Source of the DNA: Gemmatimonadales bacterium
GTDB taxonomy: Bacteria; Gemmatimonadota; Gemmatimonadetes; Gemmatimonadales; GWC2-71-9
Direction of reading: 5' to 3'
NCBI GenBank assembly: GCA_038321865.1
Contig: JBBQFH010000005.1
Location: forward strand, 11,237 to 75,236
DNA length: 64,000 nt
The translations under genes were made by a program, and so were the position numbers. The notes under the pieces were generated by a model, which saw only the letters and a list, made by a program, of their open reading frames with translations, was not told the origin of the DNA and made no database searches. Of the stretch, positions 31,322-36,207 are shown piece by piece. Numbering within the stretch: position 1 is the stretch's first letter; each line of letters starts with the position of its first letter.

Positions 31322-32068
31322 ATGCGCAAGCTGATCCTCTCCTGCATCCTGGTCGCCGTTCCCGCCGCGGCCGTCGCGCAGGTCGCCGGCCATTTTCCAC
31401 CGGACTCGCTGGTCAACACCAAGGTGATCGCGCACAACACACCGGTCATCCAGGTGGTGGGCATGATGCGGAACTTCGCCGGCGGGCTGGGCGTCCGCTG
31501 CCCGTACTGCCACGTCGGCGAGGAGGGCCGGCCGCTAGAGACCTTCGATTTCCCCAGCGACCAGAAGCGCACCAAGCTCGTCGCCCGGCAGATGATGCTG
31601 ATGGTCCAGGAGATCAACCGTCGGGTGGACACCCTGCCCGGCCGCACGAATCCCGGACTCCAGGTCACCTGCGCGACGTGCCACCACGGCGCCAGCCGCC
31701 CGGTGCCGCTCGGCATGCTCATCGCCGATGCCGCGACGGCCGGTGGTGCCGATTCCGCCGTCAGGACCTACCGCGCGCTACGCGAGCGGTATTACGGTCG
31801 CGACACCTACGACTTCAGTGAGAACTCGCTCAACACCGCCGCCTTCCGCCTGGCGCGCGCGAACAAGTACGACGAGGCGTTCGCGCTCCTTCGGCTGAAC
31901 GAGGAGTTCTATCCCACGTCGTCCGGCATGTACGTCTTCCGCGGCAATATCGAGCTCCTCAAGGGCGACACCACCGCCGCGGCGAAGGCGTTCGGTGAGG
32001 CGGTGCTGCGCGACCCGAAGAACCAGGAGGCGCAGGGGCGGCTGCGGGACATCGGCCGGAAGCCATAA
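31322..32068 (+). CDS. Diheme c-type cytochrome with C-terminal TPR-like region
   Basis: Signal peptide; CPYCH and CATCHHG; candidate Met ligands (MMRNF, ARQMM); TPR-like end. Confidence 0.88.
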   Translation: MRKLILSCILVAVPAAAVAQVAGHFPPDSLVNTKVIAHNTPVIQVVGMMRNFAGGLGVRCPYCHVGEEGRPLETFDFPSDQKRTKLVARQMMLMVQEINRRVDTLPGRTNPGLQVTCATCHHGASRPVPLGMLIADAATAGGADSAVRTYRALRERYYGRDTYDFSENSLNTAAFRLARANKYDEAFALLRLNEEFYPTSSGMYVFRGNIELLKGDTTAAAKAFGEAVLRDPKNQEAQGRLRDIGRKP

Positions 32069-32703: not shown

Positions 32704-33507
32704 ATGATCATCGGACTGGCGTCGCCGGGCGTGGCGGCCAGTCTGGAGGACGGCCTCGGGCGTATCGACCGGCTTCTGGCGGATGCATCGGGCCGGGGCG
32801 CCGAGATCGTGTGCTTCCCCGAGGCGTACCTCCCGGGACTGAGGGGTCAGGACTTCGACGTGCCGCCGTTCGGCGAGGCGCAGCAGGAGGAGACGCTCCA
32901 GGCCGTCGGCGACCTGGTTCGACGGCACGGAGTCACCACGATTCTCGGCATGGAACGCGTGACGCCGGCCGGCCGCCAGATCGCCGCCTTCGTCATCGAT
33001 CATCGCGGCCGGCTGCAGGGCTTTCAGACCAAGAACCAGCTCGATCCCACCGAAGACCGCCATTACATCCCTGGACACACTCGCCGGCTCTTCGAGGCCG
33101 GCGGCGTGAAATTCGGCATCGTGATCTGCCACGAGGGGTGGCGATATCCGGAGACGGTCCGCTGGGCGGCGGTTCGTGGCGCCAGGATCGTCTTCCACCC
33201 GCACCATGCGGGAAGCGACCGAACCGGGGCGCGCCCCCAAAGCTGGGGCGCCGCGGGCGGTGCCTACTACGAGAAGGCGATGATGCTCCGGAGCATCGAG
33301 AACACCATCTATTTCGCCAGCGTCAACTACGCGCTGCGGTTTCCGGAATCGGCCACCAGTCTGATCGAGCCGTCGGGCCAATGTGAGGCGTATCTGCCGT
33401 ACGGAGAGGAAGGGGTACTGGTGCGGGAGATCGATCCCGCCCGGGCGACCGGACTACTGGCCGGCCGGTACGCGCCCGACCGCTATCAGGACGAGAGCGT
33501 CGAATAG
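32704..33507 (+). CDS. Carbon-nitrogen hydrolase (nitrilase superfamily)
   Basis: Catalytic triad motifs CFPEAY, QTKNQ, VICHEG.RYPE. Confidence 0.9.
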   Translation: MIIGLASPGVAASLEDGLGRIDRLLADASGRGAEIVCFPEAYLPGLRGQDFDVPPFGEAQQEETLQAVGDLVRRHGVTTILGMERVTPAGRQIAAFVIDHRGRLQGFQTKNQLDPTEDRHYIPGHTRRLFEAGGVKFGIVICHEGWRYPETVRWAAVRGARIVFHPHHAGSDRTGARPQSWGAAGGAYYEKAMMLRSIENTIYFASVNYALRFPESATSLIEPSGQCEAYLPYGEEGVLVREIDPARATGLLAGRYAPDRYQDESVE

Positions 33508-34301
33508 CCGGCGGTCAGCGCCGGCCACTCCGCCGCATCGAACCGCAGGTGTGGGACGACACGGGCGCCGAGGGCGGCCGCGGCCGGCACCAGTCCGGCG
33601 TTGACGGCCGCCCCGCCCACCAGGATCGGTCCGGTGAAGGCGGGCGGGCGGGCGAACGCGTCGAGCAGGACGCGAAGTGCCGGAGTCTGTGAGGGCATGG
33701 AAATCGACAGGCCGACGGCTGTGCACCGCTCCGACAATGCCGCGTCGACGATGGCCTGGGGGCTGAATCCGTAACCCAGGACCGTGGTGCGCACGCCCAT
33801 GCTCTCGAATCCCAGGCTCGCGAAGCGAAGCCCGAGCATGTGCATGTTTCCCGGAACCGCGGCGATCAGGATCGTCGGTGCGTTCGGCGCCGGCGCGCTC
33901 AGCGCCGCCGCCTGAATGTGGCGCTCGATCAGATCGACCAGCGCCTCGCAGGCTTCGGTGAAGCGATGCTCTTCGCACACCGTCAGCAGGTTCGCTTCCC
34001 AGCGCCGGCCCACGGTGACCAGCTGGGGTCCGGCAAAGCCGAACAGCATGTCGAGCGGTCGGATGCCCGCCGCAAACCCTTCGACAGCGAGCGCTTCCAT
34101 CTCGAGTGGCGCGCCCTTGCGCCCCGCAGCCCAGAACCGGCGGTTGAGGTCCGCGAGATACCGCATTCGCCGCTCCTGCTCTCCGGTCCACTGCAGGACG
34201 GAATCGCCGCAGGCATCGCAGAGCCCGTGCGATACTTCATGGGTCTCGTACGGCGAACTCTCACCCTGGAACCGCTGACAGTACGCGCACCATTTGATCA
34301 C
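33486..34301 (-). CDS. Cobalamin-binding protein (CarH-type helical bundle plus Rossmann domain) with N-terminal Cys4 zinc-finger-like motif
   Basis: WCAYCQ...SHGLCDAC; VGRRWEANLLTVCEEH (W-x9-EH); GNMHMLG; VGLSIS; ILVGG; GTG start overlaps upstream TGA (GTGA 34298-34301). Confidence 0.82.
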   Translation of the reverse strand: MIKWCAYCQRFQGESSPYETHEVSHGLCDACGDSVLQWTGEQERRMRYLADLNRRFWAAGRKGAPLEMEALAVEGFAAGIRPLDMLFGFAGPQLVTVGRRWEANLLTVCEEHRFTEACEALVDLIERHIQAAALSAPAPNAPTILIAAVPGNMHMLGLRFASLGFESMGVRTTVLGYGFSPQAIVDAALSERCTAVGLSISMPSQTPALRVLLDAFARPPAFTGPILVGGAAVNAGLVPAAAALGARVVPHLRFDAAEWPALTAGYSTLSS

Positions 34302-35539
34302 GAGACACTCGCCGCTGCGTCCAGCGCGACGGACAGCTCGCGCACCGCCGCCCGCCACTCGTTGCCGAAACGGGTCTCATCGGTCAGCCACGACTCGATG
34401 GCCGCGTAGGCGCCGGGCACGCCGGCCGCCTCGTCGGCATGCGCCGAGGCCAGCAGCGGCACCGCACCATGGAGGGCGGAAAGGCGTTGGTCGAATCGGG
34501 CGTTCAGGTCTTCCACCGCCGCATCGGGCAAGTGAGCCCGCCGGCTTGCGCCCAGCTCCCCCACCACGCGCCTGAAGCTGGCGGTCTCCCGGGTGCGCGC
34601 CGGCGCCGCGGATTCTATCTCCGTCGCCAGCTCACGCATGTGTGTCTCGAGAATCAGCGTGGGAATGCCGCGGCTCGCCAGCACCGTGCGTAGCCACGCG
34701 ATGCTTCGGGCGATGGATTCATACTGGAGCGGCATGAGGGTAAGCAACCAGCAGCTGTCGCTCGCGGTGAACCGCCGGCCGCGTTCGCCGAAGCGCCGCT
34801 CGAGGTACGGATACCGTTCCCGCGCACGGACCCCCGCACGGATCGCGATGGCGATCTCGGCCGGATCGTCCGGCAATGCGTGCCGGCCCGCCTCGGGATT
34901 GAGCGCCGTGAGCTGCACGGTGACGTTGGCGGCGGTGAAGGGAAAAAGTGCCAGCACGATGGTCTGCAGCCCCGCGAAGGCGGCGACCGCGGCCGCCTCG
35001 ATTCTGCCTCCTTCGGGGTCAGTCAGCCGGATCGCGTCGAGGTCGGTCACGAACCGCGTCCAGGCCCTGCGGGTCTCCTTGCCGTAGCAGCCGAAGTAGC
35101 GAAGGGCGTCCGGCGCCACGTCGAGCGACTTGGCAAAGAGCGACTTCAGCGCGATACCACCGTTCTGCGAACCCTCGAACACGTACAGATAGCCGAGCAG
35201 CTCGATCTCGGGTGACTGCACGAGCTGGTCGGCCATCGCGAGTGCGGCGCGGACGGCGGGATCGATCGCCGTAAGGTGCCCTTCGGGCCGCAATGCCAGG
35301 TCTTCGATCAGGTGCGGCAGTTTTGCGAGATCGTCCCGCCAGACCCGTCCGACCCGGGGGTCCCGGGCGGTCGAGAGGCCGCGCTCGAGCACGGCATGGA
35401 TGATCGCAAGACAGTGGAGATACGATTCGGCCGCGGCGGCGGGCAGCGTCCCCGCCCGCAGCGCGTCGTAGAAGGGCGTCGCCTCGATGCCGTCATGAGC
35501 GTTCGATGTCGCCGCCTGCAGGCGGGCTCTCACGGACAT
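34298..35539 (-). CDS. Biliverdin-producing heme oxygenase fused to a C-terminal helical (putative phycobiliprotein/globin-like) domain
   Basis: L..AT..AH..IE..PF (proximal His), LLGYLYVFEGSQNGG, RYF..Y, W..F...LD, A.AAF; about 210 extra residues including YPYLERRFGERGRRFTASDSCWL and WLRTVLASRGIP; AAGGA RBS before ATG 35539. Confidence 0.85.
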   Translation of the reverse strand: MSVRARLQAATSNAHDGIEATPFYDALRAGTLPAAAAESYLHCLAIIHAVLERGLSTARDPRVGRVWRDDLAKLPHLIEDLALRPEGHLTAIDPAVRAALAMADQLVQSPEIELLGYLYVFEGSQNGGIALKSLFAKSLDVAPDALRYFGCYGKETRRAWTRFVTDLDAIRLTDPEGGRIEAAAVAAFAGLQTIVLALFPFTAANVTVQLTALNPEAGRHALPDDPAEIAIAIRAGVRARERYPYLERRFGERGRRFTASDSCWLLTLMPLQYESIARSIAWLRTVLASRGIPTLILETHMRELATEIESAAPARTRETASFRRVVGELGASRRAHLPDAAVEDLNARFDQRLSALHGAVPLLASAHADEAAGVPGAYAAIESWLTDETRFGNEWRAAVRELSVALDAAASVS

Positions 35540-35724
35540 GCACATCCTTGATGCCGCCCGGGACGGCGGAGATTGCGGGGCTTCGCTACCGGATGGAACA
35601 TAGCGGGTGGTGGACGCGCTCGCCTTTCACGCAGTGCCAGCCGCGCGATGAACTCCTCATCCCCGGGCGCATAGCTCCGTGCAATACGAAGGAACTCGCT
35701 CCCGCTTCACACGGTCCGGTCGGG

Positions 35725-36207
35725 CTACCGGTTGAGGGCGCCCCGGATGCGGCCAAGATGGTGATAGCTGTGGCGGACGGCGTGATCCTCGAGCACGAAC
35801 TGGCTGGTGAGCGGCGCGTCGAAGTAGAGTGAGACGGGCGCTGCCCGGTCCAGCTCGGCGTCGCTCAGCGCGCGGATCGCCGCGGCCGCGGCCGCGCTGT
35901 TGGTGCGCAGCAGCGCCAGCGCCTCCTCCCTGGTCACGGCGTCGTTGTCCCGCGCGTGCCCCGCGTTCATCGCATGAACGTCGGCCATCGTCACTCCGGC
36001 CACCGGCTTGCCCGCCGCGACGGTCTGGGCCAGCTGGATTTCGAGCGGATACACGCTGGCGACATGGTGCACGATGACGCCGATCTTGCGGCCATCGCCT
36101 GGTACCGGCGTCCGCCATTCAGCGTCTGTGAGCGTGGCGGCCAGGCTGGCGAGTGCGTGTGCGCCCTGTTCGAGACAGTCAGCCAGGGCATCGGAACGTT
36201 TGCTCAT
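35725..36207 (-). CDS. DinB/MDMPI-like four-helix protein
   Basis: LTDAEW.TP, GVIVHHVA, LSDAELDR, HAVRHSYHHL..I. Confidence 0.8.
   Translation of the reverse strand: MSKRSDALADCLEQGAHALASLAATLTDAEWRTPVPGDGRKIGVIVHHVASVYPLEIQLAQTVAAGKPVAGVTMADVHAMNAGHARDNDAVTREEALALLRTNSAAAAAAIRALSDAELDRAAPVSLYFDAPLTSQFVLEDHAVRHSYHHLGRIRGALNR

Follow-up and report, generated by a model that had tools for sequence, protein, structure and literature searches.

A heme oxygenase-globin gene and its coupled B12-binding gene as a candidate split photoreceptor of photocobilin type in a Gemmatimonadales genome

The bilin-binding globins closest to the subject of this study are described in three publications. Structures of the photocobilins SasPcob (8J2W/8J2X) and AbPcob (8J2Y) were reported by Zhang et al. 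in 2024 (PMC10979010), the photoglobin family was defined by Schneider et al. in 2021 (PMC8717448), and the BBAG-2 globins were found experimentally by Rockwell et al. in 2023 to bind biliverdin and to be specific for it (PMC10151467). Proteins named "biliverdin-producing heme oxygenase", and with them the Pfam domain Heme_oxygenase, are listed among the photoglobin architectures, and WP_045221611.1 is given as an example among the photoglobin carriers (PMC8717448); the union of a heme oxygenase with such a globin is already in print. The available text of that paper reads these oxygenases as degrading heme, with no consideration of the fusion as a source of pigment, the available text of PMC10979010 does not contain the term "heme oxygenase", and a literature search of main texts returned no experimental study of a heme oxygenase-globin fusion. 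Here we describe a gene of this kind, together with the B12-binding gene that follows it, in a stretch of 64,000 nucleotides (the window) from a Gemmatimonadales bacterium (assembly GCA_038321865.1, contig JBBQFH010000005.1). We propose that these two translationally coupled genes probably encode a split photoreceptor of the photocobilin type with its own biliverdin synthesis built in.

A heme oxygenase joined to a bilin-type globin

The N-terminal domain of the first gene product is a heme oxygenase. The protein scores 52.7 bits against Pfam PF01126, for which the cut-off is 23 (54.8 bits in the genome-wide search), and the profile of its family matches human HO-1 (1OYK) at E 7.9e-21, with His17 at the place of the proximal His25 and E124-G-S-Q-N-G-G130 paired with the distal LGDLSGG; H17 is conserved to at least 90% in the family alignments. 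It was the family profile that reached HO-1, as a phmmer search of the PDB with the domain alone gave no match. The second ATG of the open reading frame (ORF), at 35539, may be the true start, as the homologues and record P0003 (413 aa) suggest, which would give a protein of 413 aa.

The remainder of the protein had drawn the attention of the initial annotation, which was made without database searches and which compared positions 34298-34940 (residues 203-415 and the stop codon) with the chromophore-binding helices of phycobiliproteins. The motif string that it quoted, ...YPYLERRFGERGRRFTASDSCWLLTL...IAWLRTVLASRGIPTLILETH..., does stand at residues 246-302 of the 415-aa ORF translation, and the motif goes well beyond chance, the domain defining a family of its own. 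This family was gathered by scanning 1.84 billion cluster representatives with HMMER for the C-terminal domain, where 540 proteins matched at E ≤ 1e-3 and 111 reached E ≤ 1e-30. An alignment of 70 sequences of the domain holds Y247, R251, R255, G256, D263 (70/70), W266, W284, L285, L289, G293, and W386 invariant, in the numbering of the 415-aa protein.

Direct searches with the C-terminal domain gave little. Residues 203-415 have no match in Pfam or NCBIfam, PF00502 (Phycobilisome) does not match the whole protein at E ≤ 1, and a phmmer search of the PDB gave nothing significant (best E 0.23, cutinases). With profile A1 the photocobilin 8j2x was reached at E 0.26, and with profile A4 it ranked first at E 0.084, neither being significant; A4 found no phycobiliprotein at E ≤ 10. 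Intermediate homologues were sought with the domain profile in 251 Polyangia genomes, which contain six strong orthologues, three standalone globins with RGMC or RGIC (L050-L052; E 1e-10, 2.5e-10, and 9.2e-9), and a fusion of a photoglobin with a B12 module that is matched at E 1.7e-4 (P0284, a "cobalamin B12-binding domain-containing protein" of Enhygromyxa salina). The photoglobin of P0284 itself lies above the Pfam Phycobilisome cut-off (25.2 bits vs 22.2). Profile-profile comparison with hhalign relates the family to five photoglobin-B12 fusions with 96% probability (E 4.4e-9, 130 columns) and to the RGMC globins with 97.8% (E 1.1e-12). The profile of the fusions in turn finds 8J2W at E 1.4e-47, with an i-E of 2.4e-6 for the globin part, and also the chains of allophycocyanin or phycocyanin, at 3.6e-6 to 8e-4. 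Since the fusion profile matches both this family and the phycobiliproteins, the kinship with the latter is real but runs through the photoglobins, and the likeness that the initial annotation had seen by eye in TASD and LASRGIP was correct. It is close to certain that the C-terminal domain is a globin of the photoglobin/BBAG-2 clade, whose members are relatives of the phycobiliproteins.

A comparison of structures had been suggested as a check in the initial annotation. Residues 203-415 were modelled with AlphaFold2 from the 70-sequence alignment, and the model is confident, with nine helices, a mean pLDDT of 92.3, and a pTM of 0.87, only about the first 20 residues being uncertain. In VIA-align the model is a globin fold nearest to the bilin-binding globins, which outscore the heme globins by 2 to 5 Z units, and the structural matches to phycobiliproteins begin at phycobiliprotein residue 41-44; before residue 26 of the model no helix of four or more residues is seen. 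Foldseek found no match for the model in the PDB at E ≤ 0.001, although 8j2x, the photocobilin, stood among its weak rows with a probability of 0.92, as did a core subunit of the phycobilisome with 0.89, and the structural signal for a bilin-globin fold comes from VIA-align only. The same comparison bears on another reading, in which the domain would be a globin that binds heme and either senses this substrate or delivers it to the oxygenase. We regard this as very unlikely, given the margin by which the bilin-binding globins lead and given that the invariant Leu289 occupies the position of the proximal His, with Thr260 at the distal position (both as defined in PMC8717448).

The fusion is the rule in this family. 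Among 261 members, 202 consist of a heme oxygenase and a single globin domain, one (P0087) adds a B12 module to these two and is the only homologue so fused, and one (P0124, 632 aa) has two globin domains, which brings the fusions listed as heme oxygenase-globin to 204/261. No heme oxygenase is detectable in the other 57, of which 39 seem to be complete proteins that stand alone. In P0124 two full copies of the globin follow the heme oxygenase in tandem, each with its C-terminal extension. The initial annotation had thought a heme oxygenase fused to such a domain unusual in a genome that is not cyanobacterial; PF01126 and the globin homology bear the fusion out, and it provides genetic evidence that biliverdin is the natural ligand of the clade. 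The protein-atlas matches of one homologue were clusters of "hypothetical protein" only.

Two further elements accompany the globin core. Ahead of it stands the N-P-E-A-G-x-H motif, in which N216 and G220 are invariant and A219 and H222 are conserved to at least 90%; it is retained in the standalone globins too, and its region is poorly predicted in the model of the isolated domain (pLDDT 44 and 69 in blocks 1-20). Behind the core lies a C-terminal extension of four helices (model positions 139-149, 159-171, 177-185, and 193-212), with A368, D371, G375, W386, F393, and W397 as conserved residues, outside the span of the structural matches to bilin globins. This extension has no Pfam match, and hhalign found no match for it among the RGMC globins, the photoglobin-B12 fusions, or the B12 partner described below. 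The notion that it is a degenerate second globin half, in the manner of the RGMC globins, or a bundle like B12-binding_2 was rejected (hhalign probability at most 1%).

The predicted chromophore pocket

The biliverdin of SasPcob is bonded through its rings A to C by Asp270 and touched at ring D by Trp296, which also contacts the corrin, and it has no Cys link to the protein (PMC10979010). The SEQRES index of 8J2W equals the numbering of the paper minus 6, as checked on W61, E71, and H72, and with this offset hhalign, together with the alignment of the photoglobin profile to 8J2W, places T267-L-D-D270 of SasPcob and C-L-E-D of the photoglobins opposite T260-A-S-D263. W284 takes the place of Trp296 both in the HMMER alignment to 8j2x and in hhalign, and R292-G-I-P295 aligns with RGV(S)P of SasPcob in the profile alignments. 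Judged by spacing alone, the pocket residues Trp289, Leu294, Arg297, and Val299 of AbPcob may correspond to W284, L289, R292, and I294.

The initial annotation had pointed out that the canonical bilin-attachment Cys is a Thr here and that a Cys lies two residues past the Asp, and had considered both non-covalent binding and attachment through this shifted Cys. Both residues are as described. The canonical position (Thr260) is also Thr in 178 of the 240 homologues that bear the motif, and Cys in 2. Attachment through Cys265 or another Cys, which would make the protein a pigment protein resembling the phycobiliproteins, could appeal to the conservation of Cys265 in at least 90% of the 20 closest heme oxygenase fusions, to the biliverdin adducts that BBAG-2 globins, with their Cys in RGMC, gave after denaturation (PMC10151467), and to the C-terminal Cys, perhaps a second attachment or metal site, that ends 49/204 heme oxygenase fusions, often as ...PS-C, though not the protein encoded at 34298..35545. 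Across the 240 homologues, however, the position of Cys265 is Cys in 119 and Ala in 94, and a helix residue two past Asp263 should face away from the Asp side, as we reason from helix geometry and not from the model. The Thr at the canonical position is shared with SasPcob, which binds its bilin non-covalently (PMC10979010), and at the position of the RGMC Cys this protein has Pro295. None of the 251 homologues that bear this motif has a Cys there, and in 246 of them the turn reads RG(M/I/L)P (MP in 117, IP in 96, LP in 33). Covalent attachment therefore seems to us very unlikely.

The B12-binding partner and its linkage to the globin gene

The stop codon TGA of the heme oxygenase-globin gene overlaps the GTG start of the partner gene as GTGA (4 nt). 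The 271-aa partner is matched over 95-97% of its length by homologues of 260-268 aa, and the gene call of the database (P0265, 226 aa) begins too late and omits the putative N-terminal zinc ribbon, for which Pfam offers only PknG_rubred at E 0.11. Against the PDB the partner matches 8j2w/8j2x at E 2e-5 and MetH at 1e-7. The combination of W-x9-EH and an axial His is the signature of CarH and the photocobilins (PMC10979010), and the partner has a B12 module of the CarH type in which W101, E111, H112, and H154 are all present. The features of both genes are collected in Table 1.

Table 1. Positions in the window of the two coupled genes and of their domains and motifs
Feature	Positions	Strand	Remarks
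Bifunctional heme oxygenase-globin gene	34298..35545	minus	415-aa ORF; 413 aa if ATG 35539 is the start
Heme oxygenase domain, residues 6-193	34967..35530	minus	Pfam PF01126, E 6.6e-14
N-P-E-A-G-x-H motif, residues 216-222	34880..34900	minus	ahead of globin core
Bilin-type globin core (photoglobin/BBAG-2 clade), residues 225-337	34535..34873	minus	
T260-A-S-D263	34757..34768	minus	Thr at the phycobiliprotein/photoglobin Cys position; predicted bilin-binding Asp
W284-L-R-T-V-L289-A-S-R292-G-I-P295	34661..34696	minus	Trp equivalent to Trp296 of SasPcob; Leu in the proximal position of globins; RG(I/M/L)P motif
Four-helix C-terminal extension, family-specific, residues 341-415	34301..34525	minus	AlphaFold2 model
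B12-binding partner gene	33486..34301	minus	271 aa from GTG 34301 (translation P0264)
Putative zinc ribbon W-C-A-Y-C-Q...H-G-L-C-D-A-C, partner residues 4-31	34209..34292	minus	alignment A3
B12-binding_2 four-helix bundle	33927..34142	minus	Pfam PF02607, E 1.9e-6
W101-x9-E111-H112 in B12-binding_2	33966..34001	minus	W101 invariant; E111 and H112 at least 90%
B12-binding Rossmann domain	33600..33875	minus	Pfam PF02310, E 1.3e-9
Lower axial His154 in G-N-M-H154-M-L-G	33840..33842	minus	H154 invariant

The linkage of the two genes recurs in other genomes. We compared 39 related loci, all from metagenome-assembled genomes (L007 being almost identical to L008, and L015 sharing its assembly with L026), which span Acidobacteriota, Proteobacteria, Myxococcota, Gemmatimonadota, Nitrospira, Trueperaceae, and others. 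A B12-binding partner lies within the flanks in 30 of the 39 loci and is absent from the flanks of 9, and in 24 the start of the partner overlaps the end of the preceding ORF. The zinc ribbon is found in 28 of the 32 partner ORF fragments beside heme oxygenase-globin genes, the other four being partial or second fragments, and is absent from the B12 proteins of two unfused Polyangia clusters and from the fusion P0087. In these two clusters (L051 42-3275; L052 123-2079) the modules are separate genes, the one for heme oxygenase being followed by the B12 gene and this by the RGMC globin gene, and a histidine kinase gene comes after the cluster of L051. Three loci (L005, L025, and L029) were considered as fusions of all three modules and rejected, as their reading frames differ. 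At L029 (3878-6121) one stop-to-stop ORF joins about the first 100 globin residues to the whole B12 partner, with the rest of the globin in another frame; this looks like a frameshift or an assembly error and not a true fusion.

These comparisons also bear on a reading in which light plays no part, the globin being an acceptor or product-release module for biliverdin that relieves product inhibition, or buffers or delivers the pigment, with the B12-like neighbour employed otherwise, such as in the sensing of tetrapyrroles or of redox state. The dominance of the enzyme fusion (204/261) would suit such a role, as would the 9/39 loci without an adjacent B12 gene, the lack of an output domain nearby, and the report that BBAG-2 holoproteins are photoinert (PMC10151467). 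On the other hand, the partner retains the photoreceptor signature W-x9-EH with the axial His, the start-stop overlap is kept in 24/39 loci, a fusion of heme oxygenase, globin, and B12 module exists (P0087), and the homologous globin of SasPcob works with B12 in light sensing (PMC10979010). On balance we consider a non-sensing acceptor unlikely.

For the split photoreceptor, which we prefer, we infer biliverdin binding, complex formation, a light response, and an output as follows. The N-terminal heme oxygenase would turn heme into biliverdin, and the fused globin would take this up without a covalent link. Asp263 would form the bonds to the pyrrole nitrogens, in a bilin pocket lined by Trp284, Leu289, Arg292, and Ile294. 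The zinc ribbon and the CarH-type adenosylcobalamin module of the partner would dock on the globin, with corrin and bilin side by side as in SasPcob, and light sensing would be widened beyond UV and green to include red. The assembly state would then change with light and, because no output domain is encoded, the signal would be relayed by protein contacts. A more elaborate form of this scheme may be put forward tentatively, namely a self-loading photoreceptor of two proteins and two chromophores, in which biliverdin would be handed on within the polypeptide, the zinc ribbon would clamp the B12 module onto the C-terminal extension, and light would feed back on the heme oxygenase, thereby tying heme or iron turnover to light. 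None of these three features was found described in the literature searched. The occurrence of the zinc ribbon beside heme oxygenase-globin genes, and its absence from P0087 and from the unfused clusters, suggests that it may be a docking element.

The source genome (3.4 Mb, 89.85% complete) has a single copy of the globin domain and a single heme oxygenase. At this completeness it contains no PHY domain, no bilin reductase (PF05996, which is absent from the window as well), no match to PF00502, and no other phycobilisome gene. Within about 15 kb of the two-gene unit there is no light-, B12-, or carotenoid-related gene and no output domain, and between 33.0 and 36.5 kb no Rfam family or riboswitch, sigma-70-like promoter, or intrinsic terminator was found. 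The module is present in 3 of 201 genomes of the host phylum, the source genome included, and in none of 96 in the same family. This patchy presence in its own phylum, combined with its occurrence in many other phyla and with the origin of all 39 related loci in metagenome-assembled genomes, points to horizontal spread and to hosts that lack cultured representatives.

Two neighbouring genes may be recorded. A gene resembling DinB_2/mycothiol transferases (35725..36207, minus) precedes the heme oxygenase-globin gene by about 180 nt on the same strand and could be co-transcribed with it. In the downstream direction, some 1.4 kb from the two-gene unit and past a convergent CN-hydrolase gene, 31322..32068 (plus) encodes a protein of 248 aa with a signal-like N-terminus, CxxCH heme motifs that match part of CytoC_RC (the photosynthetic reaction-centre cytochrome c family) at E 1.4e-9, and a C-terminal TPR.

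Comparison with described bilin-binding systems

If the proposal is true, the two genes encode a compact natural module in which biliverdin is both made and bound and is paired with B12 to sense light between UV and red, and such a self-sufficient module could appeal for optogenetics because no external supply of bilin is needed. The bilin-binding globins, which are relevant to the origin of the phycobiliproteins, gain with this family a widespread branch that is known for the most part only from metagenome-assembled genomes. The zinc-ribbon partner, the N-P-E-A-G-x-H motif, and the C-terminal extension were not found described in our literature search of main texts, and the available text of PMC8717448 mentions neither zinc nor ribbon.

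The phycobiliproteins (allophycocyanin, phycocyanin, phycoerythrin; smURFP) differ from this protein in several respects. They carry PF00502, which does not match here, their attachment Cys lies in C-x-R-D, where this globin has T260-A-S-D263, and the N-terminal helix pair that serves their alpha-beta and trimer assembly is absent from the model. With the photoglobins (PMC8717448) the globin shares the Asp of helix 3, the Leu at the proximal position, and profile homology at 96%; Ser or Thr often replaces the Cys in that family, and B12-binding_2 and B12-binding are tightly associated with it, and both are true here.

The photocobilins offer the functional parallel, and differ in their organization. 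In photocobilins the globin and the B12 module form one polypeptide, whereas here they are encoded by separate, translationally coupled genes in different frames; the globin is instead joined to a heme oxygenase and has the N-P-E-A-G-x-H motif and a 75-residue C-terminal extension, and the B12 partner begins with a zinc ribbon. Direct sequence similarity between the photocobilin and this globin is marginal (E 0.084).

Nearest by sequence are BBAG-2 and related globins of Myxococcota (hhalign 97.8%; HMM E 1e-10 to 9e-9, L050-L052). In the BBAG-2 globins the RGMC motif ends in a Cys, a position that is Pro in this family (RGIP here), their genes stand separately in the order heme oxygenase, B12, globin, their B12 proteins are without the zinc ribbon, and some of them accompany a pre-2 ferredoxin-dependent bilin reductase (PMC10151467), of which none was found in the source genome. 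The clusters L051 and L052 fit the gene association of the BBAG-2 type described by Rockwell et al. (PMC10151467). Both groups nevertheless have in common the core RFG-x-RG-R...D...W-L...RG-M/I and, as these two clusters illustrate, an association with genes for heme oxygenase and for B12 proteins.
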